Below are positions 4,584 to 49,000 of a DNA stretch of 64,000 bases, piece after piece. This stretch comes from a phage. The position numbers and the translations under genes are program-made. Below the pieces are notes generated by a model. That model worked only from the letters and a program-made list of their open reading frames with translations. It was not told the origin of the DNA and ran no database searches. The DNA is taken from sequence record PV467749.1; one strand, written 5' to 3'. The stretch's first letter is position 1. Every line of letters begins with the position of its first letter.

Positions 4584-5315
4584 TTAGCAACCAGTTACGT
4601 AAATCTTGTATACCGCAATACCAGTGTCTAGAGTTACGTTTAGCATACCAGTTTTTGTAATACCAAGGGTAACAGATTCTGCGTTAGAAACGCGGGATAG
4701 AGCTTGTAGAACACGATCAATGTTATAACCAAAACCAAGACCTAGTTCACCTTCAGTTTTAGAGAATGCTAGTGCACCAACGTGGTTACTTTTGTTCTTC
4801 TCACCAACGTGGAAGTAAAGAGTATCACCTTCAGTGTATGGAGTTACTAGAGAACTGAAAGATTTAAACACACCAGAGAAGCTTTTTAGTTCCTGAACTT
4901 TAGCTGCACTAGGTGTAACCTGTACGTCATATGGTTGTTCGTGGAAACGAGGCTGGGCTGGAATTAGTTTTTCTGGTTGAACCATGAAAGTAGTGCTTGC
5001 ATCTTCTGCTTTGAATGCTAGGCTCTTAACTGCACCATCTTTCAAATTAGAAGTGATAGTAGTTCCTTCAGTACTATAAGTTTTTAGAGACATTAGACCC
5101 TGTAGAAGACCTATGTTACCAAGACCAAAACGACCTTGAACTTCTGGTACGTCTTCTTTAGTGTGAGCACGCATAACTAGGGTGCGGTCATCGGTGTATG
5201 CTTCCATGTAAACACGCTGTCCATCACCACGGTCTTCACTGCTAACTGCGATACAAGAAAAGTCGATGCCGTTGGTAGTGTTAACTAGGTCACGTAGTAC
5301 GTTGCGTAGATCCAT
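4584..5315 (-). CDS. hypothetical protein; possible gp45-like sliding clamp (weak)
   Basis: 243 aa, ACGGAGAA RBS; N-terminal LRDLVNTTNGIDFS loosely resembles T4 gp45 LKNFATINSGIMLKSG; size and position near DNA polymerase fit a clamp; not verified. Confidence 0.55.
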   Translation of the reverse strand: MDLRNVLRDLVNTTNGIDFSCIAVSSEDRGDGQRVYMEAYTDDRTLVMRAHTKEDVPEVQGRFGLGNIGLLQGLMSLKTYSTEGTTITSNLKDGAVKSLAFKAEDASTTFMVQPEKLIPAQPRFHEQPYDVQVTPSAAKVQELKSFSGVFKSFSSLVTPYTEGDTLYFHVGEKNKSNHVGALAFSKTEGELGLGFGYNIDRVLQALSRVSNAESVTLGITKTGMLNVTLDTGIAVYKIYVTGC

Positions 5316-5382
5316 TATATAATTCTCCGTTTTATTTGTTAATCAAAAATGTTTTTGTATGCTTCAGATTACTACAAGCACC

Positions 5383-5412
5383 ATTATATCTCGTGAATGA
5401 TGCTTGTCTCAA
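5383..5412 (-). promoter_or_regulatory. sigma70-like promoter TTGAGA-N18-TATAAT
   Basis: Minus strand ttgagacaagcatcattcacgagaTATAATggtg upstream of gene 4584..5315. Confidence 0.5.
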
Positions 5413-5419
5413 TTTTTTA

Positions 5420-5722
5420 TCAGTATTTTGTGTTCCAACGTTTAAGGTACGGCTTATCAGCGTTTGCACCTGCACCAATGTTGAATTTGTAACGTAGATG
5501 TTCTAAGTCTTTTAACGTGTTAACATCTTCAACAATGACAACTTTGCGTTTCTTTTCAATAGAATAGACGTCAACAATCTCACCATCAATTTCAACAGAA
5601 CCAGTTCTGGTGAAACCAGCAGACATTAGAACAACTTCATCATCATTATTGTATGCAAGTACTGAATTTACGATAGTACTATCTTCCAGTACTGCACCAA
5701 CACGCTTATAGATATTTTCCAT
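5420..5722 (-). CDS. hypothetical protein (100 aa)
   Basis: Start moved to in-frame ATG (MENIYKR) preceded by AAGGAGAG RBS. Confidence 0.6.
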   Translation of the reverse strand: MENIYKRVGAVLEDSTIVNSVLAYNNDDEVVLMSAGFTRTGSVEIDGEIVDVYSIEKKRKVVIVEDVNTLKDLEHLRYKFNIGAGANADKPYLKRWNTKY

Positions 5723-5723
5723 A

Positions 5724-5864
5724 TTACTCTCCTTGGGATGCACTCCATAAAACGTACTGTTCCCACGCCTCGTTAACACTGTCCTCAGACAGTGCTAGTG
5801 ATTCATCAGAGAATACGTCATTTACTTCGTCATATTTTAGTTTAGTTTCGTCTGCAATAATCAT
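5724..5864 (-). CDS. small acidic hypothetical protein (46 aa)
   Basis: In-frame ATG (MIIADETK) with AAGGAAA RBS; start lies just upstream of the polymerase stop; track ORF has longer unlikely N-terminal extension. Confidence 0.4.
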   Translation of the reverse strand: MIIADETKLKYDEVNDVFSDESLALSEDSVNEAWEQYVLWSASQGE

Positions 5865-5874
5865 AATATTTTCC

Positions 5875-8800
5875 TTACCAGGTGAAGAATCCGTTATTAA
5901 CGGCTGCTGTACTTTTCTCATGAATACCAATATCCATATCCAGAATACCAAAAATGTTTTCTAATTTTTTAGTTAGAACTATTTCTTCCATTTTCTCTGT
6001 ATCAAATGGTAGTTCTAGGAACCATTCAGGTAGATATTCCACACAGTCAATTGGATAACCTACTGCTTTGATACCCATCGGGTTATCTTTTAAGTTACAT
6101 ACAATTACTTTTGTACCGTCAGTTACTTCAGGTACAGTTTTGTCATCATATACTTCACGTAGACGGTTCCATTGAATACCTGCTAATACATGACCAACTT
6201 TACATTTACCAGAAACTTCATATTCTGCTTCTAAGTTGGTATAGTTCTTAACAGTTTTCGGTGAACCCTTTTCGTGTACTGGCATGTCTTTAAATACCTC
6301 TTTAAAGTCACGTACACGCTGTTTAAGTTGAGCTTCAGACTCACCCACCAGCAATGCAATTAGAGTCTCTTCTAGGAAGTTCTGGATGTATTTTGGCGTA
6401 TCTGAACGTTTAATTTCAAGACCCATCGCTTTAATTTCACCAGGTTTACCATCAACATCTTTACGGAAACCATCTTCCCAGTACTTGAGAATTGCATAAC
6501 GCTTTTTCTTCAGGAATAGACCACGGGAACCGACCATCTCTAAGTCTGCACCAACAATCTTACCTTTCTCAATACCAGTATTGAACATTTCGTTCATGAA
6601 TGAAGGGAATGATTCACCAACTTCATCACCGATTTTGATATACATGTCAACGATTTCTTCTTTAGAAAGATTATATGGAATACCTTGTTCTTTCAGGTAA
6701 TGAGTTACACTGAAGTAAACGGAGTCAGTATCACCGTAAATCACAGAGCCACCTTGATGATTATAAACACCAGTAGTGATTTCATTGATACGGCTTGCCA
6801 TATGTTTAGTCATAGAACGACCAGTTAAGGTAACGGACTGACCTAAACGCTTATCAAAGAAACGTGAACCTTTGTTCAATAGTGCACCATATAGACTGTT
6901 TAGAAGAATCTTACGAATTTGCTGGTTCTGTTTCCAGAATGCACTTTGCTGTTTGAAGTAATTCTTATCTTCCGGTGCACAGAAAATACGACCATCTTTC
7001 AGTACTAAACCATTTTCCACAATGAGTTTTGCAACTTCTTCCCATTGACCTTTACCAATAGCAATACGTAATAGATAAACAGGATCATTGTCATGTAAGT
7101 TTGTACGGAACATTGTACCACTTGTGTAGTTAGATAGCAAAGGTTCAACCTTCTCAGAACCATTGAATTCCCACCCATCACTATACATGTGTTTGTAGTC
7201 GATTACCATTTTTTGTTGTGCTTTACGCTCAGAATACCATTGAGTAAGAATATCTGGAATTACACCATACTTAGACTTATCAAAAAGTGTTCCGTTAGCA
7301 CTTAGTACAATAGTACTGTCTTCAGCAAAGATAATATCATACAATTCTTTACCAGTTGCATTGAACGAACTACCATCTTCTAAATCAACAATCAAAGTTT
7401 TGTCAGATTTTTCATGAACCATTGTAAATTCTACAGCAGCAAATAAACCATGCCATGCAGCGGTCCAATCAGGTTCAAACGCTTTAGATTTGGATTTAGC
7501 TTTTTGCTCTTGTACTTTAGCAGCAAGATATGCATCAGTGTAGTCTTGACGAAGTTGTCCAAGAATACATTCAGTACTCATGCCAAGTGTACGTAGTACA
7601 GTTGGATACAATGAGTTAAAGTCTGTACATCCCAAATCGCTAACAAGGCCAAGAACTGGATCTTGAACCCATGCACCAGCAGCTTTTGCACTGATTTTCT
7701 CATCTTCTTCATCACCTTCTTCACCATAGTACTCCATCTCTGGATCTAACTCAAAATCATCCTTCGGTGCTTTGTTAAAAACAACTTCACCGCGTGAGTG
7801 AGCGAGGTTGATAATAGCAGTGTCGATTAGTGCAACAGAACCCATTGTGGTACTAATTAGTACACATTCTTTATGAGCAAGACGGTTATGCAGGTTGATA
7901 AAGTCACATTTAGCATCAATTTTCTTTAGAAGAATACTATCCTGCTTAGAATAACGCAAGAATGTAATGTAATCTTCTCGGTATAATTTATCCAAAGAAC
8001 CTTCATAGGATACTTTGTTTTCTTTAGTTACTTTTTCAGCAATATAATCTAGTTTGTACGACTGTTCAACTTGACCAGCATGTTTCTTATAAAGAGCAAG
8101 ATAGTCTAAGTGTACACGACCAATAAGATCATATGTTACTACAGTTTTACCAAAGTTATCAGCTTCACGAGCATTTGGTTTTTTATTCCACAAACACCAA
8201 CGAGCAGTAGTTGCTTCGTTGAAGATTTTCTTGGTACGGTTTACCATATATGGAATATCAAAGAATTCACTGTTCCAACCTGAAATTACATCAGAGTCAT
8301 CGATTAGACTAAAGAACTCCATAAACATTTCTTTCTCATCCGTATAAAGGATGACAGTACTGTTAGGGTCGTTAGTTTCTTCGTTTAACTGACGAACAAT
8401 ATCTTGTGCTTCGTACATTTCCATATCTGTTGGTGGCAAAGTAAGTACATAATCCTTACCAGTCCATGATTGATATAGAGAAATTGCAGTTACACGGTTG
8501 AATGGATCTGATGGTGGAGCATAACCAAACTTCTTATGGAAGTCGGTTTCGATATCGAAAAATGCTACGTTCAAATCCGGCGAACCTTTACCCATGTATT
8601 CTCTAGCCAACGTTTTGAAGGTAATGTTGCAATCACTTTCAAAAATACGCAGACCTTCATTTTTATGTTGCTCAACGCTTTTATTCATCTGTGATTGAGT
8701 TTCAAACTCCAAATGCTTTGCGTTAGTTCCATAAATTGTTTTGTGTTCACCAGTAGGACATTCAACATAATATTCATATACTGGGTCCAACTGACGTAGA

Positions 8801-19144: not shown

Positions 19145-21343
19145 TTAACTGTTTCTCTCACCTTGGGTGTTTTCAGAGATAGTTCTTAGATAATTATTTG
19201 TCTGTTGTACAGCAGATAGTGATTGTTCATTAACATCGGCAAGCTTTTTGAGTATTTCTTTCATTTCATCAGAAATCGGTGCTGGTGGTCCAGTTCTCGA
19301 TGTCACTGCACTACCATTATTTATCATCTTCTTAATTGCCTCTGTATCGTCAGGTTTTGGCGGTACTGGTGGTTCACCTGGTGCCCATGCAGTTTTATCA
19401 AAATCTTTACGAGATACAGTTATTTCTGGAGCAACGTTATTGGTTTTTTCAATAACAGGACGAATACGTTCTACTCCTGGACGGTTGAATAAACTGTCAG
19501 CATAATCAGATGGTAGTGGTTTTGGTTCTTTGTAGTTACGTGAGGTGTTCCATTTGTTGAACTTATCCCACATCCCTGCAAAATAATCACTAACACTATT
19601 TACACCGTTGTCAATGATGTTGTTTACGCTTTCTGCTGGGGTTTCAGTACTGTTATTGAGTTTTATATCATTATCAGAACCACCACCGAACCAACTTTTA
19701 ACAGAATTCCATAGGTTACCAGGTAAATCCATTAAGTTATTCATAAAGGTATCAAATGCTTCTGACACTTTAGAGTAACCTGAACCGAATATATCTGCAC
19801 CCAATCCATCCAACCAAGCTGTAAATTCAGCACCAATACGATCAAGGTAAGCAATTGCATCTTTAGCAATAGGTACTAACCCAAATCCATCAAGAGCCAA
19901 TTCCCCAATAAACTCCCATGCACCATCAGTTCTGTCTGCAATGTCTGAAAGATAATCCACAATTGAATTTTGTGTATTAGCATACATTGTATTAAATGGT
20001 TCAGTGAATTCTTTACTAATCCACATATTGAAGCGGTTAGTAAATTGAGTTAATTTATCAGCGGGATTATTTTTAGGTTCATTTACGGTTGCTTCCATAT
20101 CCAATAGTTGTTGGTAGAAGGTTGCAGCAGTTGTGTTTCCTAATTGAATCTGGTTAAGCAAATCTTGCTTAATTAATTCTTTATTCTTTTTAACGAATTC
20201 TAATTGTTGGCGACGAATTTCTTGTGAATCAGTTACCCCACTACGTACAAGATTTTCACCTAAATCAGCGAACTGGTTCAGTACTGGAGTGAGTAGGTCA
20301 TCCGGTACGCCACCAATAGACAATCTGTGTGATATCAAACGGAGGAAATCTGCACCTGCATCACCCATTGCACCCGCAGCTTCGTTGAACGCCTTAGATG
20401 TTGCTACAGCAGCTTTACTGGATAGTCCAGAGTAGTTCTGCAATGCAATTTGCATAGAACGCGTATCGAGTGATTTATCTAGGTTTTGTGTTTTGTTTAG
20501 TAATGCATCTACGGATTCACCCATGCTTTTACTGAATTTAGTCATGCTCATGATGAATTGTTCAGTACTTTTAGCTTGGTCCATACTACGAAGAGCTTCA
20601 CGACCACCATATTGTTTTTGGAACTTAATGTTTCTTGCAGTTAAATCAGTTAATGTTTTTTGAGAAATACCATAAAGGCCAAGTTCATTTTGAGCTTGTT
20701 GAACAGTTCCTAATAATTTACCAAAGGTAGCAACACCATCACCATATGCACCATCCAATTGAGCTACTACAGAACTATGTGTTTGTAGAGCTTCACTGAA
20801 TGCATCCATACTCAACATAGATGCACCTGCACCTTTCAGTACTGAGCCATAACCTTCAGCCAATGCAACACCAGCACTGTTAATTCTGGTATAAACTTCC
20901 AATTGTGCATTAAGGGCATTGTATACCGCAAGACCAGCACCAGTAACGAGTTTAAACGCTGCTGCCGCTGCACCAATTGGACCTGGCATCATTGCTAATG
21001 AACCAGCAAATGATGATGCACTAACGCCTAATGAGTTTACTACAGTACTTACGTTGGTACTGGAGTTCATCATTGTTTTGCTTACATTAGAAACTTCAGA
21101 AGATAGTGATTTGAACAATTTACCAAATGCTTTCCCATCATCGGCTTGTGCACTTCCACGATTTCCACGATTACTGGAAGAACTGGAACTGGAACCATTC
21201 TTTTTACTATTTGAACCTGATTTTTTCTTATCATTCTTTATATTTTCAGCTAATAACTCACGGATAGCAGTCAAACTATCATTGTTATCTTTAGTTTGAT
21301 TAACCAACTGCTGTAGTAGGTAATCACTTGTATTGACAGCCAT
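19145..21343 (-). CDS. tape-measure-like / large internal virion protein
   Basis: Track ORF starts at GTG with implausible N-terminal extension; start moved to ATG (MAVNTS) with AAAGGGA RBS; Ala/Gly/Ser-rich with helical repeats typical of tape measure proteins; function not verified. Confidence 0.6.
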   Translation of the reverse strand: MAVNTSDYLLQQLVNQTKDNNDSLTAIRELLAENIKNDKKKSGSNSKKNGSSSSSSSNRGNRGSAQADDGKAFGKLFKSLSSEVSNVSKTMMNSSTNVSTVVNSLGVSASSFAGSLAMMPGPIGAAAAAFKLVTGAGLAVYNALNAQLEVYTRINSAGVALAEGYGSVLKGAGASMLSMDAFSEALQTHSSVVAQLDGAYGDGVATFGKLLGTVQQAQNELGLYGISQKTLTDLTARNIKFQKQYGGREALRSMDQAKSTEQFIMSMTKFSKSMGESVDALLNKTQNLDKSLDTRSMQIALQNYSGLSSKAAVATSKAFNEAAGAMGDAGADFLRLISHRLSIGGVPDDLLTPVLNQFADLGENLVRSGVTDSQEIRRQQLEFVKKNKELIKQDLLNQIQLGNTTAATFYQQLLDMEATVNEPKNNPADKLTQFTNRFNMWISKEFTEPFNTMYANTQNSIVDYLSDIADRTDGAWEFIGELALDGFGLVPIAKDAIAYLDRIGAEFTAWLDGLGADIFGSGYSKVSEAFDTFMNNLMDLPGNLWNSVKSWFGGGSDNDIKLNNSTETPAESVNNIIDNGVNSVSDYFAGMWDKFNKWNTSRNYKEPKPLPSDYADSLFNRPGVERIRPVIEKTNNVAPEITVSRKDFDKTAWAPGEPPVPPKPDDTEAIKKMINNGSAVTSRTGPPAPISDEMKEILKKLADVNEQSLSAVQQTNNYLRTISENTQGERNS

Positions 21344-21488
21344 AACATTCCCTTTTAATAGATGTATTATAGAAATATTTATGAATCTATAACGAATAAA
21401 AAAGACCCATCTATAACATTTGTCCAATTTGTCCCATTTTTTGGTAATAAATACTACAGAGACATTTATTACATGGAGATTTAATAAA

Positions 21489-22325
21489 ATGGCAATGAAC
21501 CCACTAGCTAAGTATACTAAAATTGAAGAACTTGGTACAAAATTGGTCACAAATGGCGTGATTCCTTATAAAGAAGGAGTTCTTGGCTCTAAAGGTATCA
21601 AATGTGGCATTTGTGCTCGTAGTGCACGCGATGAAATGACACTCAATACACCAGATATGCTTCTAAATGGTGATGCAATTGCTCGTGTTATTGAAAACTG
21701 CGTACCTAACGTACTTGATGCAGATGAACTTTATGTAAATGACGTAGAGCAACTACTTATCGCTATTAAAGTAGCTTCTAAAGAAGAATCATATGATATT
21801 AATGTGACATGTCCTGAATGTAACAAAGAAGGCCGTTTTGAGCGTAGCTTATCATATCTACTAGAAACAGCACATACTTTCAGTGAAGTTCCTACTGTAC
21901 AATTGGATAATGGACTAAGTTTAGAGTTTAGACCACTTACTTGGAAGGAATATTCTAACTTCGCAGAAAGAATGTTTACAGAACAACAAAAAACTAAATT
22001 CCTTGAAACTGCCGAAATGGAGCAGGAAGAAAAAGTTAAAGTGTTTGGTGAAGTATTTGAAAGTATGGCACAACTCAACTTTGATATGATCGCAGGAGTT
22101 ATTGCTAAAGTAATTACTCCTGAAGGTGATGAAGTAACTGAAAACGAATTCATTTCTGAATGGCTAGGTCAGCAGTCCAAAGGAACACTTAAAATAATTC
22201 GTGAAAAAATGGATGAAGTACTTGAAATTGGTGTTTCCCATACTATGGAAGTTGAATGCAGTGACTGTAATCATCAATGGGAAATTAATGGACTGAAATA
22301 TGACCCAAGTCATTTTTTCGCATAA
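21489..22325 (+). CDS. zinc-ribbon-containing protein (CGIC...CPEC...CSDC), hypothetical
   Basis: Start at ATG (MAMNPL) with GGAG RBS; three CxxC motifs. Confidence 0.65.
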   Translation: MAMNPLAKYTKIEELGTKLVTNGVIPYKEGVLGSKGIKCGICARSARDEMTLNTPDMLLNGDAIARVIENCVPNVLDADELYVNDVEQLLIAIKVASKEESYDINVTCPECNKEGRFERSLSYLLETAHTFSEVPTVQLDNGLSLEFRPLTWKEYSNFAERMFTEQQKTKFLETAEMEQEEKVKVFGEVFESMAQLNFDMIAGVIAKVITPEGDEVTENEFISEWLGQQSKGTLKIIREKMDEVLEIGVSHTMEVECSDCNHQWEINGLKYDPSHFFA

Positions 22326-22534
22326 TGCTTCTCCACTCATCTCCTGAAGAAATACAAGAAGTACTTAAGGAATTTGAGTTGAATAAGTCAGATATTAAAA
22401 CTGCATTAATGGAGTGTTCTGTTTATATGGAAAGTGTTGATTACGGAACACTACTTAATATGCCACTAATTGATAGAGACTTATTAGTTAAGTCTTTTAA
22501 TAAGAAAATTAAAAAACAAAACGAGAAGCACTAA
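22325..22534 (+). CDS. hypothetical protein (69 aa)
   Basis: ATG overlaps upstream stop (TAATG); followed by strong terminator. Confidence 0.5.
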   Translation: MLLHSSPEEIQEVLKEFELNKSDIKTALMECSVYMESVDYGTLLNMPLIDRDLLVKSFNKKIKKQNEKH

Positions 22535-22544
22535 CTCACAAGGA

Positions 22545-22572
22545 GCCAGCACATTGTTGCTGGTTTTTTTTT
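22545..22572 (+). terminator. intrinsic terminator after gene 22325..22534
   Basis: CCAGCA-CATTGT-TGCTGG followed by T9. Confidence 0.85.
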
Positions 22573-23372
22573 GGTTTTAAACTACAGAATTGATTGAATT
22601 GAATTATGAAAGGAATTAATTATTTTATAGTGAACTCATCTAACTCATTTCATTCGTTAGCTGAAGAATATTCGTTACTACGTAACTCATATTCATTTCT
22701 TATAATTAATTATAAAGAACTTTAAAAGATTTAATACTTGACGGGATTTGTTGAAGACATTTTCATCCCCCCGCAGGGGAATGAAGACAATAAAAAAGAG
22801 ACAATTAAGTCTCTTAATTCTTGACGCTGATGGTTTCAGCATTTATTGTATTGCGAATTTCTTAAAATTCATTAAGAACGAAAGCGGGTTGCTCTGTTTC
22901 TCTCTATCGCAGTCATGTGCAACGGTCGTCAGTCTTAATCATCCTGACACTCACCTGAAAGTCTATACAATCAAACTTCAGGCTGTTTATTAAATCACTT
23001 AATAAACTCCCTTAGCAAATCTGGTAAGGTGCGATCCTTATACATCTATCGAGGAACTCTCTGTATGCTTATCGGAGTTCTTTATTGAGCCGTGTCGCCG
23101 TGAGGGGTTCAAACTATGCCCACATCTAACGGGTTTCTTCTGCTCATCGCACTGTTGAACTGCTCATCTGCCATCTACATTTTCGATAGGATCAGGTTCT
23201 AATTTATATGCATTTCTGCATTCAACAGGATTGTCATCACTACAATTAACATTATAGCACCAAATTCAAAAGTGTCTCACTATTATGATAAAAAATTTAT
23301 AAAAAGTACATAATTCTTGAACATTGAAGTAACGCATAAATATTTTGATAAGAATTAGTTTAGTGGGGATTT

Positions 23373-23858
23373 ATGAAGAAAAGATTAAAAGATAGTAAAG
23401 AAGCTGCAAACTATCGAAATGAATTACTAAAGAAGCAAAAAGGAATTGATCCTATAATTAAGGAACCAATAACTAAGCCAGTACTTGATCACTATCACTT
23501 CGAGAATCAACATTGTCGCGGAGTACTCCAGAATGAGATAAACGCCTTTGAGGGTAAGGTTTCCAACGCATGGAACCGATATGGAAAGCATTTAACTGAT
23601 ATGCCATTACATGAAGTACTAAGAAACCTTGCAGATTATCTTGAAAAGAACAATAATATCCCACTGGAAGAACAGGTGATTCATCACACGGCACTAACTG
23701 TGGATGTAAACAAGTTTAAAAGGCTCCCTGCAACGCGTCAGAACGAGATATTGGGGTTATGCGGTATAGAGCCATTACCTAATACAAAAGAACGCTCAAA
23801 GAGAGCTAGAGAGCTTATTAAGAAAGGAATTCTCAATATAAATGAATACAAAAAATGA
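23373..23858 (+). CDS. Endonuclease VII-family protein (T4 gp49-like resolvase)
   Basis: LDHYHFENQHCRGVLQNEINAFEG aligns with T4 endo VII LDHDHELNGPKAGKVRGLLCNLCNAAEG; HEVLRNLADYLEK vs YLEWLENLLTYL; zinc-ligand cysteines apparently absent. Confidence 0.7.
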   Translation: MKKRLKDSKEAANYRNELLKKQKGIDPIIKEPITKPVLDHYHFENQHCRGVLQNEINAFEGKVSNAWNRYGKHLTDMPLHEVLRNLADYLEKNNNIPLEEQVIHHTALTVDVNKFKRLPATRQNEILGLCGIEPLPNTKERSKRARELIKKGILNINEYKK

Positions 23859-24546
23859 TATTTTTATAGATAAAGCAAATATAAAACATAACAACAAATA
23901 TGAATATACATTAGTTGAGTATGTAAATAATTACACTAAAGTTAAAATTATATGTAAGAAACATGGTATGTTTTCACAAACTCCAAATCACCATTTAAAA
24001 GGAAGTGGATGTAATGAATGTTACTTAGAAAGCAAGCACGATACTAAAGATGACTTCATAAAAAAATCCATGAAAGTTCATGGTGAATTATATGATTACT
24101 CAAATGTGATATATAAATCTTCAAAGAAAAAAGTTGAAATTATATGCAATAAACATGGTTCTTTTTATCAGAGGCCACATGAACATATATCAGGTAAAGG
24201 TTGTTCAGAATGTGGAGTTGGTGGTTACAAGAGAAGTAAACCAGGTCGTTTATATGTATATGAAGTTTTACAAGACGACAAAACTATAGCATACAAATAC
24301 GGAATAACTAATGGTACTATTAATAATAGAAAATATTACCATGAGTATCACTCTAACTTAAAATTTAATTGTGTTTATGAACTATATGATGAAGATGGTA
24401 ATGTTCCATATAATATAGAAAAAGCAATAAAAGCTGGCATGAAAAGTGTTTTTTTATCAAAAACTATTTTAGAAGTTGGGTATACCGAAACGATAGAACC
24501 GTCTTTATATGAAGATTTGATTAATATAATAAAAAAAGGGAGCTAA
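23842..24546 (+). CDS. homing-endonuclease-like protein: two zinc-ribbon-like modules + GIY-YIG-like (T5orf172) domain
   Basis: Repeats YEYTLVEYVNNYTKVKIICKKHGMFSQTPNHHLKGSGCNEC and YDYSNVIYKSSKKKVEIICNKHGSFYQRPHEHISGKGCSEC; C-terminal PGRLYVYEV...KYGIT. Confidence 0.8.
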   Translation: MNTKNDIFIDKANIKHNNKYEYTLVEYVNNYTKVKIICKKHGMFSQTPNHHLKGSGCNECYLESKHDTKDDFIKKSMKVHGELYDYSNVIYKSSKKKVEIICNKHGSFYQRPHEHISGKGCSECGVGGYKRSKPGRLYVYEVLQDDKTIAYKYGITNGTINNRKYYHEYHSNLKFNCVYELYDEDGNVPYNIEKAIKAGMKSVFLSKTILEVGYTETIEPSLYEDLINIIKKGS

Positions 24547-24562
24547 GGCTCCCTTTCCTTTT
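24531..24562. terminator. bidirectional terminator between convergent endonuclease and gp46-like genes
   Basis: A7-GGGAGC-TAAG-GCTCCC-TTTCCTTTT; stop codon of plus gene lies in the loop. Confidence 0.75.
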
Positions 24563-24564
24563 AA

Positions 24565-26712
24565 TTAGAAAACATCATCCAGAGTTGTATACTCAACAGT
24601 ACTGAAACCATCCTCTTTAACTACTTTTAGGATTTTCTCAGTCTTAGAAAGCAATTCTTCTCTGTGAGAAATGGCATATACATTCTTACCACGCACAGCA
24701 GCCATATCTTGGAAGATAGACCACACGCGAAGAACACCACTTGAATCAAGACCTTGGTCAATCATCTCATCAATGATAAGAATATTGATACTTTGATACA
24801 ATGACTCATATGTATCACGGAAAGCACAAGATAAAGCAATGTTTACCCTTGTACGCTCACCACGACTAAGCTGTTTATAGTCAAAGTACTGACCACTTTT
24901 CTCAATTTCTACACTCAAATCATTCAAGAACACAACATTATGTTCAGAACCACACATATCAATGTAATATTGAAGACGTGTATTCAGATACGAAATGTTT
25001 TGTTCAATAATACGCTTACGGACATAAGAATCCTTGTTTAACAACAATTTAACCAAGAAATCTTGGTGATTTGCCATCTTATCAAGGTTATTATAGTCAC
25101 TATAGTCGATTGGTACTAATGAATCGGTCGTAAGTGTATTAATTTGTCCAATAAATGTGTTAGTAGTTTTCAATTCACGATCTAATTGCTGTGATAATGA
25201 AGTTACTGTCATTTCTAACTCTTTTACTTCAGATTTATTCAATGTATCTGGTACTTCTTGAAGAACATGTGCGTTCAGTTCTTCATATGATGACATAAGT
25301 TCATTAGCATAGATGTTAATTTGCTCTTCTTCACTCTTTTTAATAAGTTCTTGAAGCTTATGCTCATGCATTTGTGCTTCAGTTAGTGTAGAATAGAATG
25401 TCACAGGCTTAGGTGGCATATCAAAAATCTCAATACTATCAATTTCCTGAAGTATTGTTTCAATTTCAGAAGTGGAACTATCAATTTTCGATTGAAGTTC
25501 ATTAATAGTATTTTGAATTTTATCTTTAATAGACGAAGTATGTTCATTATGTTCTAATTCGGACATACAAAGTGGACATTTACTACTCTCCACTGTTGCT
25601 AATTTGTCCACCTCAGCACGTAACGAACTCTCATGACCATTTAAAGCCACCTTTAATGCGTTAAGTTTTTGTTCTTTGAAACGTTTTTGGTTATTATTCT
25701 CTTTTAGAATACCCTCCAACTGTTTCCATATCTCCAACTCATTGTGATTTTCTAATTCAGTACTGATATCAATAGTTTTTAGCTTATCAATACTTACATT
25801 TAATGCTAATTTTGCTGTTGCTAGTTCACGGTCATATGCATCATACTTCAAAGCTAACTCTTGCACACGTCTTTCTATTTGATCACGAGCAGCATTATGA
25901 ATAAGAGCTTTCTCTTTCACTTCTGCCAAATCATAGAGATCGTTGAAGTCTAAAGTTTTGTAGATATTCAATTCTTCAGTCAACTTAGATACTCTATTAT
26001 TTTTATCAATCTCAAATTGGTTAGCTTGTTCTTGTAATGATTCAATACTTTTTTGAATACGTTCATTACTTGCAGCCACAGTTTCAATTTTGAACTTTTC
26101 TTGTTCAGCTAAACGTTTAGAATCTTTATACATATCCTTTAATAGTTCAGCTTTCTCTGTTAATTGTGTGATGCCCAGAAGTTCCTCAATCATATCACGT
26201 TGTTTCTGTGATGATAATGCAAGAAACGGCTCTACGTTAGCATTAAGTACTACAATATGTTCAAATAGTAGTTGAGAAATCCCAAGAATCTCGTTTAGAT
26301 CTTCTTGTGTATCTTTCTTCTCCCCTCTTGACTCATCTTCGACCTTATTATCTTTACCTAATGTAATAAAGTTGAAATACGTGGGACTTCTCCCACGCTC
26401 GACGAGATATTGTACACCATCTTTCTCGAACTCAACAGATACTTCACAGTTTTTAGCATTAGTTTTATTAACTAAGTTTGGAATTTTGATATCGTTACCA
26501 ATACTTTTTCCAAACAAACCAAAAACTAAACCTTGAATGATGGCACTTTTACCAACACCATTACGGCGACCGGAACTATCACCACCTTCAATAACTGCAT
26601 CATTGTTTTGACCAAGAACTAACGATATATCAGCACCAGACAAATCAATTACTTGTGGTGCATTGCCAAATGAAAAGAAGTTCCTCATTGATATACGTGT
26701 AATGTTTAGCAC
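24565..26712 (-). CDS. recombination/repair exonuclease subunit, SbcC/Rad50-like ATPase (T4 gp46-like)
   Basis: N-terminal Walker A GVGKSAI, long coiled-coil middle, C-terminal ABC signature region; N-terminus parallels T4 gp46; track start is GTG with AAGGGAAA RBS. Confidence 0.9.
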   Translation of the reverse strand: MLNITRISMRNFFSFGNAPQVIDLSGADISLVLGQNNDAVIEGGDSSGRRNGVGKSAIIQGLVFGLFGKSIGNDIKIPNLVNKTNAKNCEVSVEFEKDGVQYLVERGRSPTYFNFITLGKDNKVEDESRGEKKDTQEDLNEILGISQLLFEHIVVLNANVEPFLALSSQKQRDMIEELLGITQLTEKAELLKDMYKDSKRLAEQEKFKIETVAASNERIQKSIESLQEQANQFEIDKNNRVSKLTEELNIYKTLDFNDLYDLAEVKEKALIHNAARDQIERRVQELALKYDAYDRELATAKLALNVSIDKLKTIDISTELENHNELEIWKQLEGILKENNNQKRFKEQKLNALKVALNGHESSLRAEVDKLATVESSKCPLCMSELEHNEHTSSIKDKIQNTINELQSKIDSSTSEIETILQEIDSIEIFDMPPKPVTFYSTLTEAQMHEHKLQELIKKSEEEQINIYANELMSSYEELNAHVLQEVPDTLNKSEVKELEMTVTSLSQQLDRELKTTNTFIGQINTLTTDSLVPIDYSDYNNLDKMANHQDFLVKLLLNKDSYVRKRIIEQNISYLNTRLQYYIDMCGSEHNVVFLNDLSVEIEKSGQYFDYKQLSRGERTRVNIALSCAFRDTYESLYQSINILIIDEMIDQGLDSSGVLRVWSIFQDMAAVRGKNVYAISHREELLSKTEKILKVVKEDGFSTVEYTTLDDVF

Positions 26713-26724
26713 AATAAATTTCCC

Positions 26725-27756
26725 TTATAGTGATCTGTAAATTTGGATTAGAAGATTTTTATCGAACATAGGTGAATCAATTTCCATGATTTGTTGTAAC
26801 ACAATCTCATCAACTGACTCAGTACTTTCAAAGCTTTCACCATCTTCAATAAGTTCTTTGATACTTTGCTTGCTAGTAACAACGTTAAACTCACGAATGT
26901 TATAAAGTTTAGTAAAAGTATCACGAATAAAACTAATCTCATCAGTAGTGATAGCAATATCAACTTGAACCTTTGAAATAGTATTGTCTTGAAGATAATA
27001 ACTTGGATCTGTTAATAGTTCTGAAAGTGTAAATGTTCTATATTTTGGTGCTTCTGACCAAGAATGGAAAGTTGGTTCTTTACCATGTTCTAAAATCATC
27101 ACACCTCTTGCATCATCCCATGTATCAGAAAAGTTATGTGGGAAACAGTTACCTGTGTAAATTACACGAGTTCCTTTGGATGTTGTTTTTGCTTGTCTCT
27201 TGTGGAAATGCCCACTAAAAACATACTCACAACCACCAAAAGAACCTTCAGTCTCTTTACCATGATCTGGCATCTCAACCATTTTATTGAGCAAGTAGCC
27301 AGGTAACTCTAAGTGACCAAAAACATACTTACTTTTAAGTTGAGGTAGAACTTTGTATTCATCTTCAATCATAAATGGAATGAAAGTACAATCATCAAAT
27401 GTTGTGATTTCATTAATGAACTCGATGTTCTCATAAACTTGTGCCATATTAATACTAGTAATGTCACGTTTATTTTTATGATACATGTCATGGTTCCCAA
27501 CTAAGAAGTAAACCTTATCAAAGTTGTCATTTAGTAATTGTAGAATTTGTAAACCATAGTTTAATGTTTGAATGTTAATATTACTGCGGTTATGGAAGTA
27601 ATCTCCCATAAACACGCATACAGTAATACCATTTTTCTTAGCAAGTTCAATCATAAACTTGATGAAGTTCAAACAATCTTCGTTGTGCTGCTTGCTGTTA
27701 TTCTTTAATCCTAAATGAATATCAGTAAATGTAATTGCTTTATCAAATAGAGCCAT
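26725..27756 (-). CDS. recombination/repair nuclease subunit, SbcD/Mre11-like phosphoesterase (T4 gp47-like)
   Basis: N-terminal FTDIHLG and GDYFH, GNHD phosphoesterase motifs; start moved from TTG to ATG (MALFDK) with AAAGGAAA RBS. Confidence 0.9.
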   Translation of the reverse strand: MALFDKAITFTDIHLGLKNNSKQHNEDCLNFIKFMIELAKKNGITVCVFMGDYFHNRSNINIQTLNYGLQILQLLNDNFDKVYFLVGNHDMYHKNKRDITSINMAQVYENIEFINEITTFDDCTFIPFMIEDEYKVLPQLKSKYVFGHLELPGYLLNKMVEMPDHGKETEGSFGGCEYVFSGHFHKRQAKTTSKGTRVIYTGNCFPHNFSDTWDDARGVMILEHGKEPTFHSWSEAPKYRTFTLSELLTDPSYYLQDNTISKVQVDIAITTDEISFIRDTFTKLYNIREFNVVTSKQSIKELIEDGESFESTESVDEIVLQQIMEIDSPMFDKNLLIQIYRSL

Positions 27757-28582
27757 CTTCGTTTTTCCTTTCAATCATGTTCATTTCAATTTCGATTTGA
27801 CGAGTGTGTGATGGTGTAAAACCATGCATCTCAAGTAAATCGTCTCGGATGTTACGAACATTTTTCTCACTATTAAGAATCGAACGGAAACTATTGTTAA
27901 CGAACGAAGTATAGTAAGAGAAAGGATTCAACTGTACTGCTGGTTTATCTTTTTTGTAAAGAATACTCTCTTTAAAGAGAAGTGCGTTTTTAACTAATTG
28001 TATTCTGGCATCACCCATCATTTCATCCAAATATGTATAGTTTCTATAGTTGGATTTGTGTGAGATTTCCTCTGCCAGTTTAATGAACATTTTACCTAGT
28101 TCATTAGTGATTTTACCATGAACAGTGCTGAATTCTCCGTCTTCAAGATCACCTTTCCAGTGAGAACGAACGACTTCGTACAGAATACCTTCTTCATCTA
28201 CAATGTAATGTTTGAATGGTTCAAAATTAACTCTTGTATCTGCTGGGATATGTTCATCGGTAATTACACGAATAACCACCTCATCGATAGGTACATCAGT
28301 CAGTACTAAATTGTGCTCATCTGCGTATTCCTTCGCTTTCTTCGCACTCATACCTTCTTTTTCACGAATTGCATCAAGCATTTCATTGTTGAGACGTTTA
28401 ATACGTGCTGCTTTAGCTTTATCTAAAAGTTCTGCTGTGATTTCGGATTCATCAAAAACGATATAATCGTACATACTGTAGCACTTATCAAGTAACCAGC
28501 AATATGAGATTTTACTTTTTTGTATCTCACGAAGTAAATCAGCATTGTTAAGATACTTTTTACGCTTCGGCCTATTTGTCAT
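27743..28582 (-). CDS. late-transcription sigma factor (T4 gp55-like) with large internal insertion
   Basis: KYLNNADLLREIQKSK vs T4 gp55 KYNYVNNKELLQAIIDWK; NPFSYYTSFVNNSFRSILNSEKN vs [23 protein letters not shown]; start at ATG (MTNRPKRKK) with GGAGAG RBS. Confidence 0.8.
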   Translation of the reverse strand: MTNRPKRKKYLNNADLLREIQKSKISYCWLLDKCYSMYDYIVFDESEITAELLDKAKAARIKRLNNEMLDAIREKEGMSAKKAKEYADEHNLVLTDVPIDEVVIRVITDEHIPADTRVNFEPFKHYIVDEEGILYEVVRSHWKGDLEDGEFSTVHGKITNELGKMFIKLAEEISHKSNYRNYTYLDEMMGDARIQLVKNALLFKESILYKKDKPAVQLNPFSYYTSFVNNSFRSILNSEKNVRNIRDDLLEMHGFTPSHTRQIEIEMNMIERKNEDGSI

Positions 28583-32039: not shown

Positions 32040-34703
32040 ATGGCAGATACAAGTAAGAAATATGCCCAACAACAGTTGGGTCGTTTTGACCCTTCGTATC
32101 CACAACTAGCAACCGTGATGGATAACCGTGACCCAACTAAATCCGGTAAGCTAAAAGTGTGGATTCAAGGTTCACAAAGTGATAAAAATTCAAAAGAGTC
32201 ATGGATTGAAGCATCATACATGTCTCCATTCGCTGGTAAAACTCCAGGGATACCAAGTGCTGATGCTTATGGTCAATATCCAAAGGGATATGGTTTTTGG
32301 GCGGTTCCACCTGATGTCGGATGTACTGTTGTTGTTATATTTGCACAAGCAAGAACATTCCAAGCGTATTGGATTGGTTGTGTTTATGACCAACGTATGA
32401 ATACGATGGTTCCTGGGATGGCTACTGAAATAAGCAATTATGCAGGTACTGATATGCCATTACCCGTAACTGATTATGACCGTAATACAATTTCTACCAG
32501 TACTCAAGACAAATATGCAAACGTTCCAATTATTGCAGGTCTGAAAAAACAAAACTTACTTTATGATGAGGAAGCGGGTGTTGCTAACCGTAGTAGTACT
32601 CGCCAGACCACCAGTACTGTTTATGGTCTTTCCTCACCTCGTGGTAACAGTTTTATTATTGATGATGGTTACACAGAAGAAGAATTAACAGCACCTACAT
32701 GGGATCAAGATCCAGATGGTTATCAGGATACCCAATTCAATAACCCAGTGAACGATACTCGTGTTGGTTCTCGTAAAAATGAAGGCGTTGTAATTAAAAC
32801 ACGTAGTGGTGCACAGTTGTTGTTATCTGAAGCCTCTGGTGATGTTCTTTTAATTAACCGTGATGGTACTGCACGTATTAAATTCACTGGTGAAGGTGAT
32901 ATTGAAATGCACTGTGATAAGAATATTAACATTCGTGCAGGTCAAGATATTAACATGGTTGCTGGACGCTCATATAATATTGAAAGTGGAGCAGACTTCA
33001 ATGCTCGTGTTGGTGCAAACACTAAACTAGATTTGGTTGGTGCATTGGATGCTAAAGTTGGTGGTCAGGTTGTTATTAACGCTGGAGCAGATTTACGTTT
33101 AGTAACAGCAGCTTCATTACGTATGCAAAGTGGTAGCAGTACTGATATAACTGCTGGTTCTAATGCGTCAATCTCTGCTGCTACCAGTGCTAATCTTATT
33201 GGTTCTTCATCAGCTATTATTAGTGGTGGTGGTCAAACCCTTACTGTTAACAGTGGTGGTAATAGTGGTACTGCTGAATTTAATGCACCAAACTTCCGCA
33301 CCCCATCTGCTGGCTTGAATGATCATATACATGATATATCGGCTTGGGTTGATGCAGAGAATCACGGCAGTACTGTTGAACCTCCACGTCAAGGTGGTGG
33401 TAGTGGGAATAGTGAATCCCCAGTTCAACCTGAACCTGCTAATGATGTAGCTCCAACTTTAGCTCCAGTACAGGACACTGAAGCAATTCAATATGTAAAT
33501 TATACAACAGAAACAGAACAAGTTCAAACACAAGATTTAATGACTTCTGATCCTAGTATGACTGGTTATAGCATTACTTATGAAGGTCTTCATATGTTCA
33601 TGCCGTGTAGTGGAACCATTCGCCAATACGGTTATTGGGGGAAAGGTGTCCCGACTAGTGGTGGTGGTAAAGCTGATAGAAGTGGCTGGGAAATACAGTG
33701 CAAGGGTGATGTTGTAGCTCCAGATGGCGGTGTAGTTGTTATCACTAATGGTGCTTTATTGGTTCAACATAAGTCTGGATATAAATCTGTATTTTATAAT
33801 ATTCAATCAGATTTGCTCAATAAAGACGTTGTTCAAAAAGGTCAAGTTATCGGTAAAGCTAATGGTGTTATTCAATTTGAAATAAGAGTCACCTCTGCCA
33901 ACGTACTAGGATTTAGTGGTTCTGTTGACCCTGGATTATTCTATGCATCCCAGACTGGTACAGGTTCTGAAGCGGGAAATAAAACATTAATTGCAGGACA
34001 AGCAACGAACCAAGCAGCACCGAAAGCTGTTGTTCAACCTTCTGTTGATAGTGATGAATTAGTTGTAACAACTAAAATTAAAACTATCGGTACTGGGTAT
34101 TCTCAACGTGGTTCTCGTCATGTCCCTCGTCGTAGAAGAACACAACGTTCAGGTGGTACTCCAGCACCTACTGCACAAGAATCATACAATGTGGGTAATG
34201 TTGATAAGACTGCAATTGATTGGAAAGTTGTTCCGGGTGATTCACAATTTATTTCTGAATTGAAAGAATATGAAGGAACAATGGCGTATCAACAAGCTAA
34301 AGGATATTACCGCAATGGTAAATTTTGGAGATATTTGGATAGTCGTGGATTCCCAACTATTGGTTACGGTCACTTGATTGTTGGTGGTGAAAACTTCTCT
34401 GGTGGGATTACCGAACAGGAAGCCAATGATATGTTGGTGCGTGATAGTAGTAAGGCTATATATGACGCAAAATCCATTTACGCTTCTTATAAGATGAAAA
34501 CACCTTACATGGCACAACAAGTTCTATGTCAAATGGTATTCCAGATGGGTAAAGGTGGTGTAATGAAATTTAAGTCAATGCTATCTGAAATGGCTAAAGG
34601 TAACTACAAGCAAGCTGCTGCTCAAATTCGAAATTCAGCTTGGTATCGTCAAACTACACGCCGTGCTGAATTAATGGCACGTAGATTAGAGGCATGTCAA
34701 TAA
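32040..34703 (+). CDS. baseplate hub/puncturing protein (T4 gp5-like) with C-terminal GH24 lysozyme domain
   Basis: N-terminal OB-like region (KLKVWIQG...GCTVVVIFA) resembles gp5 N-domain; beta-helix-like Ser/Gly/Ala repeats; C-terminal CQMVFQMGKGGVMKF...SAWYRQTTRRAELM matches T4 lysozyme INMVFQMGETGVAGF...SRWYNQTPNRAKRV. Confidence 0.9.
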   Translation: MADTSKKYAQQQLGRFDPSYPQLATVMDNRDPTKSGKLKVWIQGSQSDKNSKESWIEASYMSPFAGKTPGIPSADAYGQYPKGYGFWAVPPDVGCTVVVIFAQARTFQAYWIGCVYDQRMNTMVPGMATEISNYAGTDMPLPVTDYDRNTISTSTQDKYANVPIIAGLKKQNLLYDEEAGVANRSSTRQTTSTVYGLSSPRGNSFIIDDGYTEEELTAPTWDQDPDGYQDTQFNNPVNDTRVGSRKNEGVVIKTRSGAQLLLSEASGDVLLINRDGTARIKFTGEGDIEMHCDKNINIRAGQDINMVAGRSYNIESGADFNARVGANTKLDLVGALDAKVGGQVVINAGADLRLVTAASLRMQSGSSTDITAGSNASISAATSANLIGSSSAIISGGGQTLTVNSGGNSGTAEFNAPNFRTPSAGLNDHIHDISAWVDAENHGSTVEPPRQGGGSGNSESPVQPEPANDVAPTLAPVQDTEAIQYVNYTTETEQVQTQDLMTSDPSMTGYSITYEGLHMFMPCSGTIRQYGYWGKGVPTSGGGKADRSGWEIQCKGDVVAPDGGVVVITNGALLVQHKSGYKSVFYNIQSDLLNKDVVQKGQVIGKANGVIQFEIRVTSANVLGFSGSVDPGLFYASQTGTGSEAGNKTLIAGQATNQAAPKAVVQPSVDSDELVVTTKIKTIGTGYSQRGSRHVPRRRRTQRSGGTPAPTAQESYNVGNVDKTAIDWKVVPGDSQFISELKEYEGTMAYQQAKGYYRNGKFWRYLDSRGFPTIGYGHLIVGGENFSGGITEQEANDMLVRDSSKAIYDAKSIYASYKMKTPYMAQQVLCQMVFQMGKGGVMKFKSMLSEMAKGNYKQAAAQIRNSAWYRQTTRRAELMARRLEACQ

Positions 34704-34716
34704 ATATTTCAGTACT

Positions 34717-34724
34717 ATAAATAA
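34717..34724 (+). promoter_or_regulatory. T4-type late promoter TATAAATA for endolysin
   Basis: atttcagtacTATAAATAataatgagg about 17 nt upstream of ATG 34741. Confidence 0.7.
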
Positions 34725-34740
34725 TAATGAGGAAATCTTT

Positions 34741-35229
34741 ATGAGTAAATGGGAAATCAAAAATACCGACGAACAATTTTTTAAAGAAATTAAAGAATTT
34801 GAAGGTACTATTGCGTATCAGAAAAAACTTGGTTATTTTAAAAATGATAAGTTTTGGGTATATAAAGACAGTCTAGGTCTTGATACCATTGGTTACGGTC
34901 ACCTTGTACTTAAGGGTGAAAGTTTCAAAAATGGACTCACTGAAGCAGAAGCTGATGCTCTCCTTATAAAAGATGCTCAGACCGCTTACAATGACGCAAA
35001 ATCAATCTATGATCAATTTGGAATGACTGCTCCAGTACAGGTTCAGCGTGTATTGTGGTTTATGGTGTTCCAAATGGGTAAATCAAAAGTTTTAAATTTC
35101 AAAAAAGCGATGGCTGCTCTCGGTCGTGGTGATTATAAAACTGCTGGTAAAGAAATGCGTGATAGTTCGTGGTACAAACAAACCACATCCAGAGCGGAGA
35201 AGATGGCTCGCATCGTCGAATCCGTATAA
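34741..35229 (+). CDS. endolysin, T4-lysozyme-like (GH24)
   Basis: EFEG...DTIGYGH...WFMVFQMGKSKVLNF...SSWYKQTTSRAEKM; RBS GAGGA; TATAAATA about 17 nt upstream of ATG. Confidence 0.9.
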   Translation: MSKWEIKNTDEQFFKEIKEFEGTIAYQKKLGYFKNDKFWVYKDSLGLDTIGYGHLVLKGESFKNGLTEAEADALLIKDAQTAYNDAKSIYDQFGMTAPVQVQRVLWFMVFQMGKSKVLNFKKAMAALGRGDYKTAGKEMRDSSWYKQTTSRAEKMARIVESV

Positions 35230-46000: not shown

Positions 46001-49000
46001 ATTCCAGAACTAAATCTTGTACTGATATTGCTCGTATTATTAAAGAACCAGCACAGCTTAACATTCCTTGGTTTGCACCAATCAATGAAAGCTCGTTCAT
46101 TCTAAGTAATATGCAATTTGAAGTCAACGATGACACAAGTATTTTAACTGTTTCTTATTACATGGATAATACTGAAGTTATTAAACATGACCAGTATCAA
46201 TTATGTAAAGAAGGTGATAGCTATAACTTCAATCCATCAATCTGGACTTCTATGTGGAATTCTATGATTGGTCAAGAAACTACTGAATCAGGAACTGTTA
46301 TTGATTTACTATATCCTTTAGTACCAAACGGTTTAGGTTCTAATAAGACTTGGTTCCAAGATGTAATTGAAGCTCGTAGAAACTTTGTAGAAAGTGCAAA
46401 TAACTATTATCGCTCACAGAATATAACAACTAACACTGTTCTAATGGACGAAGTGTTTAATGTTAAAACTACTGAAGTTAACCCGAATGAAGTATCATAT
46501 CGTGTACTAACTTACAATAGTGAATTAGTCATTGCACCTGAAAGTGACAAGTTCAAAGAAAACGACGCAGTACTAGTAAGTACTAGTGGTGTATTACCTA
46601 ACCCACTATCAACTAGCTCTGTATATTTTGTGCATATTGATGCTAATGGTTATATTCATCTAATGAATAGTCCATCAAGTGCTGGTAGTGTGGTTACCAT
46701 TACATTGGAAAACCGTGGTGAAGGTCAACAGAAAATGATTAAACAATCAGACTATGTTGAAGCACTAGGAACTTCATTGGACATGACCCAGTACTGGTCA
46801 CTAGCAGATTGGTATGATATTGGTTACGATAAAAATACTGCATATACACAAGAATCCAGCCTAGAAGATGCAAACACTAAGAACTATCAAGTTGGTGACA
46901 TTATCAGAATTACAGATGTTGATGGCATCTGGACATTGTACATTAAAGCACAATCACGTGATTCAGTTTACTGGAAAGCAATTGGTCGTGAAAATAGTAC
47001 AGTTGAATTGAATGATATGTTATACGCTGACTATACAGTTCGTGATGCTAATGGTTCGTTGAGTAATCGTGAGATTAACGTTCGTAAAGCACTAGCTTTA
47101 TTGAAGAACTCATTCGACTTACATCAGAGTGAAATTGTGTTTGATATGGTTAAGTATGTTCACGTAGAACAAAGCGTTGTTGATTGGGTATTCAAAACAT
47201 CTTACATTTATATTGTAGGTTTAGAACAATCATTAGTACAGAACTATTCCAACGACAACTTGATTAATCAAATCGTTGAGTACTTTGAAGAAGTTAAACC
47301 ATATAGAACTAAGATTCGTTCCCAGATTGAACAGAAAACATCAGATGATGATTTAATTAAAGGTTTGTGTAATGATTTAGATCCTAATGGCTATATATTT
47401 GCAGATGGGACTTGGGTTAAAACGGAAAAAGACATTTGGGATTATGAATATGCTCAATTCAATGAGGTAACTCAACGTTGGGAGCAAGTTGGTGAATTGC
47501 CAAGTGATTTCGTAACACCTAATCGCCGTTTCCAAGAAATTGATGTTATCATGCACTACGACAACACTCAATGTAAACCAAATGATAATTTGGCAAGTGT
47601 TGATGTATTGGAAGAAGTGAATAAGAAATATCAATCTAATGCACAAGATGTTGTTAGTAATTTTGAATTACAACGTTACAAATATACATTCCCAGAATAC
47701 AGTGATGAAGATTTCGACCTATTGGTTGCTTATCAGATGCAATTGTATTACCCAGAATTGAACGTAACTCTAGGGATTGCTTACGGTGTTAACCAATGGT
47801 ATGCAGACCATGCAGATGATTTGGTAGCAACCGCAGAATTCACAGAAACGTTGAATCGTGTATATAAAGAATCAACACAAAATGAAATGTTTAATGACGT
47901 AAATCATTACGTTCAGTATAACACACTCTCTAACCGTTTGAAATTGTACACAGGTGCAGATGATGAAGTAATTCATGATGAAGTTGGATGTGGATTTAGT
48001 GGGTTAACCTATGATGATAATCCAAGCACCAGACTACCGTTTGGTTATGCATCCAGTACTGATTATAACTTTGGTTACTTTGAAGTTAGTAGTGAGTTGT
48101 ATAAAAAGTATGTTTCTTTAATTAAAGAAAACAATACTACTGCAACTGATGATGAAGTTAGAATTATACTTGAAGTTGAATATGGTGTTTATTCATATCG
48201 CCATGTAGATGAAGATGGAAATCAACGATTCTACAATGACGCAATTCATGTATTGTCCGGTATGCGTGGTTTGTATGACAAAGATGCTACCGACCATTAT
48301 GAAAAGGCTGAAGAAATACTAAGTAGAATGCCTATTGATATTCATGCATTTACTATGATGCCACGAAAATATGTTTATGTTAATGTTAATGGTGTATACG
48401 AGAGTATCCCAGATGACCAAAGCATTGATGATTTCATGGAAGACAAATTCATAACTGACGGTCAACTAGTTCAATTGGCAGAAATAAATCTTGATGACTT
48501 ACCTCTTGATAGAAATAACCCAATGTACAGTGATTATCAGCACATCCTAGATAGCATCACCGATGCTAAGTACTACGATGATATGAATGCATTTGATAAC
48601 CTAGCACTTGAATCACAAACTTCCGAGTTAAAATGGGAAGTTGAAGGTGACGAAGTAGATCCGTACATAATCGACATTTCTGATATTAACCCATCAGGAA
48701 GAAAGATTGGTCAGATTCGCTTCACAGTTGATGGTTATGGATTCAATAGTGTTTCACTAGTTCAATTGAGAGACAATAGTAGATATAAAACTGAAGGTAT
48801 GGTTATTATCAACCCTTATAAAACAACAGAAGCAATTGTTAGTATTCCTTCTTACGCTAAGATTGAAAATGATATTAGTAAATCATACAGTAAGTATGAT
48901 GAAAAATACTTCTATAAAATTAAATCAATTGTTAGTGATACAGAAGCTGAAGTAATTGACAATACCCTATCTGATGGTGATAAGGTTATGATATTCACAA

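Follow-up and report, generated by a model that had tools for sequence, protein, structure and literature searches.

Endonuclease VII (Endo VII) of phage T4 is the textbook phage junction resolvase. Its Cys4 zinc site links the N-terminal loop with the beginning of the finger helix and is reported to be required for folding and DNA binding. The gene described here was identified in genome papers as a homolog of T4 Endo VII and the Holliday junction resolvase of Rak2-like/T4-related jumbo phages (PMC5259590; PMC7824862), and Iyer et al. found the distribution of Endo VII-like resolvases in T4-related jumbo phages to be nearly complementary to that of RuvC (PMC5259590). A 'DHHRN' signature was defined by Fang et al. 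2018 (PMC6083498), and according to the T4 mutagenesis cited in that paper, the enzyme was inactive with either C23S or C61S and tolerated C26S or C58S as a single change. His-Me finger nucleases which naturally have no zinc knuckle, such as colicin DNases, have been reviewed (PMC5714182) and provide a precedent for a finger that is stable without structural zinc; however, they belong to other families with a different supporting structure and are homologous to the protein described below in the finger alone. No description of Cys-less Endo VII proteins, or of missing zinc ligands in this family, was found in the open-access literature searched. The Endo VII identity of the gene was already recognized in annotations and genome papers.

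The window analyzed in this work, a stretch of 64,000 nucleotides (PV467749.1), is derived from an Asteriusvirus-like jumbo phage (121Q/PBECO4/Rak2 type). Its region 20000-28000 was 98.7–98.8% identical to WPEC3, EC.P1, fEgEco12 and other phages, save one block that is absent there. The Endo VII-like gene (23373..23858, plus strand) codes for 161 amino acids. A GGGGA sequence is located 4–8 nt ahead of its ATG, and an in-frame TAG at 23361-23363, just 5' of this ATG, fixes the N-terminus and rules out cysteines in any upstream extension. In related jumbo phages, the syntenic gene is annotated as "endonuclease VII". It was present as a single copy adjoining SbcCD in every related jumbo phage examined, with or without the homing gene discussed below, and is a syntenic core gene of 121Q/Rak2-type jumbo phages.

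The neighborhood was as the first-pass annotation had described it, with a homing-endonuclease-like ORF (23842..24546) followed by gp46-like, gp47-like and gp55-like genes. The SbcC-like (gp46-like; 24565..26712) and SbcD-like (gp47-like; 26725..27774) genes, both on the minus strand, were assigned from ORF calls and the annotation of the syntenic fEgEco12 genes, and orthologs of this pair match Metallophos and AAA_23. The gene for a gp55-like sigma factor lies beyond the pair, likewise in the relatives examined. The analogy which had been drawn with the placement of T4 gene 49 holds for the regional neighborhood of recombination genes but not for the exact position: the gene directly adjoins the gp46 homolog here, whereas T4 gene 49 is ~11 kb away from its gp46 gene (gene 49, 46382-46855, and gene 46, 33302-34984, are separated by ~11.4 kb on the T4 map, an interval that contains 47, a-gt, 55 and nrd genes). 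The ORFs in the intergenic stretch of ~840 bp (22535-23372) upstream of the Endo VII-like gene were all short; its fEgEco12 counterpart is annotated with two small hypothetical genes, and the last 373 bp (23000-23372) were 100% identical to that phage. Terminator-like hairpins were observed in this upstream region at 22540-22569 and 22796-22840. A scan of 22300-24700 for sigma-70-like promoters returned 9 sites compared to 12.4 expected by chance, and the T4 late-promoter motif TATAAATA had 5 matches in the window compared to 7.5 expected, none of them upstream of the Endo VII-like gene. No promoter signal exceeded the chance level.

The similarity to T4 Endo VII was borderline at the level of the single sequence (phmmer against PDB, E=0.17), and the homology is secured by profile and structure methods. 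Pfam PF02945 (Endonuclease_7), which had been suggested as a check, did match residues 12-92 (E=0.0032), but with 17.8 bits the score was under the gathering score of 23.6. With an E-value cutoff of 0.01, this model detected 64 of 118 scanned family members, the 161-aa protein included, with a best value of 1.1e-11. No NCBIfam family was matched by either the Endo VII-like protein or the 234-aa homing protein encoded next to it. The PHROG profile phrog_423, 'endonuclease VII', matched the 161-aa protein with E=5.4e-35. We built a family alignment of 118 sequences (A2) and used it for hhalign, an HMM search and an AlphaFold2 model. Comparison of this alignment with T4 Endo VII by hhalign gave a probability of 98% (E=2e-13), and the family profile searched against PDB (hmmsearch) hit T4 Endo VII chains only (E=6e-17, T4 residues 10-143). 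The model had a mean pLDDT of 95.2, and 98 across residues 21-30 and 51-60, a confidence which is no proof of stability without metal. From the N-terminus, it comprises a helix, a beta-beta-alpha-Me finger, two long helices and a helical C-terminal domain.

Superposition, another check that had been suggested, matched the model to the T4 Endo VII fold (Foldseek, E=5.5e-7, TM 0.70/0.72, 161 columns). T4 Endo VII was the sole strong structural match, a full-length one in which the C-terminal domain took part. No HNH-family model (PF01844 and relatives) matched better than Endo VII. The earlier observation of a match across the catalytic core was upheld by phrog_423, hhalign, hmmsearch and Foldseek alike; judged from these profiles and the predicted structure, the 161-aa protein is a full-length T4 Endo VII homolog with the whole body beyond the nuclease finger. 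The two proteins are of a similar size class (161 and 157 aa) and, in structure-based alignments with T4 Endo VII (PDB 1en7, 1e7d, 1e7l, 2qnc and 2qnf; PF02945), are ~21–24% identical. Conserved residues were found in helices 54-70 and 79-94 and would be in line with a domain-swapped homodimer, as in T4 Endo VII. The long helices are presumably dimerization helices, as we assume from the T4 structure; L83, L86 and Y89, conserved in the putative dimerization helix, are shared with T4 Endo VII, and H104, which is invariant in the family, corresponds to T4 H105.

Alignments with T4 placed D39, H40, H42, R49, N57 and E60 at T4 D40, H41, H43, R54, N62 and E65. The DHxH motif (D39-H40-Y41-H42; 23487..23498, plus strand) and the codon for R49, the invariant Arg of 'DHHRN' (23517..23519, plus strand), are followed by the segment Q53-N-E-I56-N57-A-F-E60 (23529..23552, plus strand). 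This segment, located at the start of the finger helix in the predicted model, contains the former second zinc knuckle (T4 C58..C61) together with the catalytic Asn and Glu. D39, H40, H42, R49, N57 and E60 would, with a catalytic divalent cation, form a beta-beta-alpha-Me (His-Me finger) active site. Glu was present in the E60 column (23550-23552; T4 E65) in 75 of 150 representatives of the family, and the others had Leu, Ile, Val or Met. A catalytic Glu at this position is therefore not general in the family, and the 161-aa protein has it.

Loss of all four zinc ligands, by analogy with T4 Endo VII, could in principle disable the enzyme. A catalytically dead or structurally compromised relic, kept as a DNA-binding or scaffolding protein, would be in line with the disappearance of ligands that are essential in T4 and with Pfam scores under the threshold, but we consider such a relic very improbable. 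The DHHRN signature was invariant in 117 close homolog clusters and intact in 149 of 150 representative clusters, the fold was predicted with the high confidence given above, and the Cys-less form is the prevailing state of a family that numbers 740 clusters at E<=1e-10. Selection on the gene also argues against a relic. For codons 48-120, dN/dS was 0.014 between the window and TH47 and 0.088 between fEgEco12 and TH47, values limited to comparisons including TH47 as dS was saturated for the window against fEgEco12. The Endo VII-like gene is under strong purifying selection (dN/dS 0.01–0.09).

The T4 zinc ligands C23, C26, C58 and C61 aligned with D26, I29, Q53 and I56, both by hmmalign and by MAFFT. 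The first-pass annotation was right that the ligand cysteines are missing and that QNEIN stands in place of CNLCN; in the alignments made here, the four columns were likewise Cys-less. However, the N-terminal CLICQ segment, which had been described as absent, is present as G24-I-D-P-I-I29 with its cysteines replaced, and the former first zinc knuckle is D26-P27-I28-I29 (T4 C23-L-I-C26; 23448..23459, plus strand). The CX2-4C ... CX2C structural-zinc motif is absent from the 161-aa protein, which has only two cysteines. One of them, C48, aligned with T4 V53 in a column that is Val, Ile or Cys across the family, and the other, C129, sits in the C-terminal domain. An alternative zinc site was also sought among conserved residues, including C48 (which alternates with Val/Ile) and H104 (also present in T4, as H105), and a four-ligand cluster was not evident. 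The protein falls outside two formal definitions of the T4 Endo VII family, one set by the Pfam gathering score and the other by the Cys4 motif for zinc.

We further examined the occurrence of these cysteines in the family. A profile search of 1.84 billion representatives detected 1704 clusters at E<=1e-3, of which 740 reached E<=1e-10, and the ligand columns were scored in the 150 best representatives of clusters at 50% identity. No ligand Cys was present in 72 of these sequences, one in 55, two in 4, three in 5 and all four in 14. A lone surviving Cys was the first ligand 49 times and the last ligand 6 times, and, among these 150 representatives, the C58-equivalent Cys was never retained alone. 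This pattern, with the first Cys kept and the C58 equivalent never alone, parallels the T4 mutagenesis as it is cited in PMC6083498. In the Cys-less representatives, position 26, which corresponds to the first ligand, was Asp in 69 of 72 sequences, position 29 was mostly Thr, position 53 was Asp, His, Gln or Ser, and position 56 was Val, Ser, Thr or Ile. When the closest 105 clusters were scored (P0001-P0111, with the fragment P0104 left out), three of the four ligand columns were free of Cys throughout, and 15 clusters had Cys in the fourth column alone (C61 equivalent). Of the seven clusters at the greatest distance, P0115 had all four ligand cysteines and four others kept the first only.

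Cultured phages displayed the same range of states: rV5_ev158 and Ralstonia phage RsoP1IDN had none of the four ligands and phiTE had the first only. The relatives in PHROG 423 are annotated as endonuclease VII or as packaging/recombination endonuclease. 'Endonuclease VII' proteins of Rak2/121Q jumbo phages (55–87% identity to the 161-aa protein) and of rV5-like phages (~47% identity) belong to this same family, and the Cys4 site is likewise missing in Vequintavirinae (rV5, phiTE, PVP-SE1) and in some Autographiviridae members. The loss of the Cys ligands is therefore family-wide and graded, and not peculiar to this gene. A neighbor-joining tree of 152 catalytic domains contained at least 29 changes between Cys-less and Cys-bearing states, but with ~90 columns it is too noisy for reliable counts of events.

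These data suggest how the finger might be held together in the Cys-less proteins. The near-invariant Asp26, in place of the first Cys, would tether the N-terminal loop to the finger helix without zinc. It would do so by hydrogen bonding to the N-terminus of this helix, at residue 54 of the predicted model, or by capping it. The polar residue 53 (Gln in this protein, and Asp, His or Ser in others) would be its partner, and positions 29 and 56 would turn into packing residues. Alternatively, a structural metal may still be bound at the same place via a non-Cys site composed of Asp26 and residue 53 with water or backbone ligands, in which case the scaffold would be 'cysteine-independent' rather than metal-independent. 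Column 26 was indeed either Asp (75) or Cys (72), and the two exchanged many times (at least 24 changes on the rough tree). Column 53 was rich in metal-capable residues (His 44, Asp 33, Cys 14, Glu 8), and the commonest 26/53 pair was Asp/Asp (29 cases); such pairs often go with a bound cation. However, the Asp/Gln pair of the protein described here, with Ile at both other positions, would leave at most two weak ligands and no recognizable zinc site. Moreover, position 53 is commonly occupied by Ser, Gln or Asn, and positions 29 and 56 often have Thr, Val or Ala, which fits hydrogen bonding and packing better. We regard a non-Cys metal site as unlikely.

An extended form of the tether model is that Cys-less Endo VII is a naturally evolved, truly zinc-free scaffold with the near-invariant Asp as the tether, and that a stepwise path of loss is preserved in the family. 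Along this path, four cysteines would have given way to the first only and then to Asp, in the order that T4 mutagenesis predicts, and the loss may have occurred repeatedly. We put this scaffold model forward tentatively.

The locus itself is mosaic. Compared to fEgEco12, which has no homing gene, the window was essentially identical up to 23512, ~70% identical to 23732 and without alignable sequence to 24528; identity resumed at 24529, and the flanks were 99.6–100% identical. These breakpoints in identity delimit a horizontally transferred cassette (23514..24528, plus strand) which comprises Endo VII codons 48-161 and the homing-endonuclease gene. Its left junction separates H47 from C48, within the nuclease finger. 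The cassette was 99.4–99.9% identical in three public contigs (L007-L009) whose SbcC was just 85–90% identical, and therefore it moved as a unit between phage backgrounds. This is the pattern expected of homing with co-conversion of flanks, and the 3' two-thirds of the Endo VII gene came in along with the homing gene. Because the cassette imported codons 48-161, the protein is only 77% identical to the Endo VII of near-isogenic phages. Compared to the Endo VII relatives of other jumbo phages, the protein described here is a chimera, ending in ...NINEYKK where they have ...DIKKGS. A copy joined within the nuclease finger, at codons 47/48, is a point against a working resolvase; this concern is eased by the observations that both parental alleles are Cys-less and that the chimera is present in many assemblies.

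The free-standing homing-endonuclease-like gene (23842..24546, plus strand) has a 17-nt overlap with the Endo VII stop and codes for 234 amino acids. In the protein, two DUF723/DUF4379 treble-clef zinc modules are followed by a GIY-YIG/T5orf172-like domain at the C-terminus (LYVYEV..YKYGITNG..GYTETI), and it matched phrog_681, 'endonuclease'. Its last codons (24529-24546) correspond to the ancestral C-terminus of Endo VII (...KKGS*). A bidirectional terminator-like hairpin (24531..24560), with a 13-pair stem on the minus strand and a 9-pair stem on the plus strand, is located between the convergent Endo VII/homing unit and SbcC, at the right boundary of the cassette. As the KKGS* end is within this hairpin, the insertion kept the terminator, and the Endo VII gene gained the new C-terminus NINEYKK*. 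An identical 234-aa protein was found on 21 public contigs, and its family occupies up to 14 places per jumbo-phage genome. Most relatives of this protein had the same N-terminal modules but were fused with a Vsr-like nuclease domain instead, and this exchange of C-terminal domains suggests domain shuffling. In TH47 (L001, ~4860-6300), a larger and different homing-endonuclease-like gene occupied the site equivalent to 23842, having only its 3' end in common with the homing gene of the window. The junction between Endo VII and SbcC appears, from these sequences, to be a recurrent landing site.

The first-pass annotation had also offered a diverged mobile nuclease as a possible identity of the 161-aa protein. 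We considered it as a homing-type enzyme of the Endo VII-motif 'DHHRN' class similar to F-CphI rather than a housekeeping resolvase. Homing endonucleases of this class do exist (PMC6083498) and, like the restriction enzyme Hpy99I, have the DHHRN signature and the beta-beta-alpha-Me fold in common with the 161-aa protein. Its gene copy is mosaic and within a mobile cassette, and the protein is divergent from that of fEgEco12 (77% identity) in spite of flanks that are ~99–100% identical. Nevertheless, the impression of mobility arises because mobility belongs to the neighboring homing gene, which accounts for the mosaicism with its cassette boundaries at 23514 and 24528. Every related genome examined had one copy of the Endo VII-like gene next to SbcCD, even where the homing gene was absent, its dN/dS was low, and the entire T4 Endo VII body was kept, including the long helices and the C-terminal domain. 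In F-CphI, by comparison, the Endo VII motif is at the C-terminus of a different protein. For a single-copy, syntenic gene with the full Endo VII body, a mobile nuclease is extremely improbable and we did not retain this identity. Membership in the F-CphI type of homing endonucleases, which are sporadic free-standing genes with the motif in another architecture, was rejected on the basis of synteny in the relatives examined and the full Endo VII architecture.

Our preferred explanation is that the 161-aa protein is probably a working junction resolvase in which the His-Me finger is held without the Cys4 zinc site. As far as comparative analysis can indicate, it is most likely the Endo VII-type junction-resolving enzyme of this phage and the counterpart of T4 gp49. 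The zinc-independent resolvase that had been suggested for this gene is the best-supported reading, on the strength of the full architecture, the catalytic set, the lack of Cys4, synteny and purifying selection. Its zinc independence is inferred, and so are enzymatic activity, a dimeric state, the lack of any bound structural metal and the Asp-cap mechanism. By analogy with T4, the predicted resolvase would cut branched recombination or replication intermediates before or during packaging.

The practical impact of these observations is modest, as the Endo VII identity was already recognized and other families also have His-Me fingers without zinc. However, a large conserved branch of Endo VII has none of the four cysteines, and its members include the resolvase candidates of Rak2/121Q-type, rV5-like and some T7-like phages. 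Pfam, NCBIfam and similar curated models under-detect these proteins, and a "zinc-binding" annotation should not be carried over to them. The family also offers a graded natural series, with four, one or no Cys, for studying how a structural metal site is replaced. If the zinc-free reading is true, Cys-less Endo VII would be a ready-made system for the loss of a metal site without loss of function.
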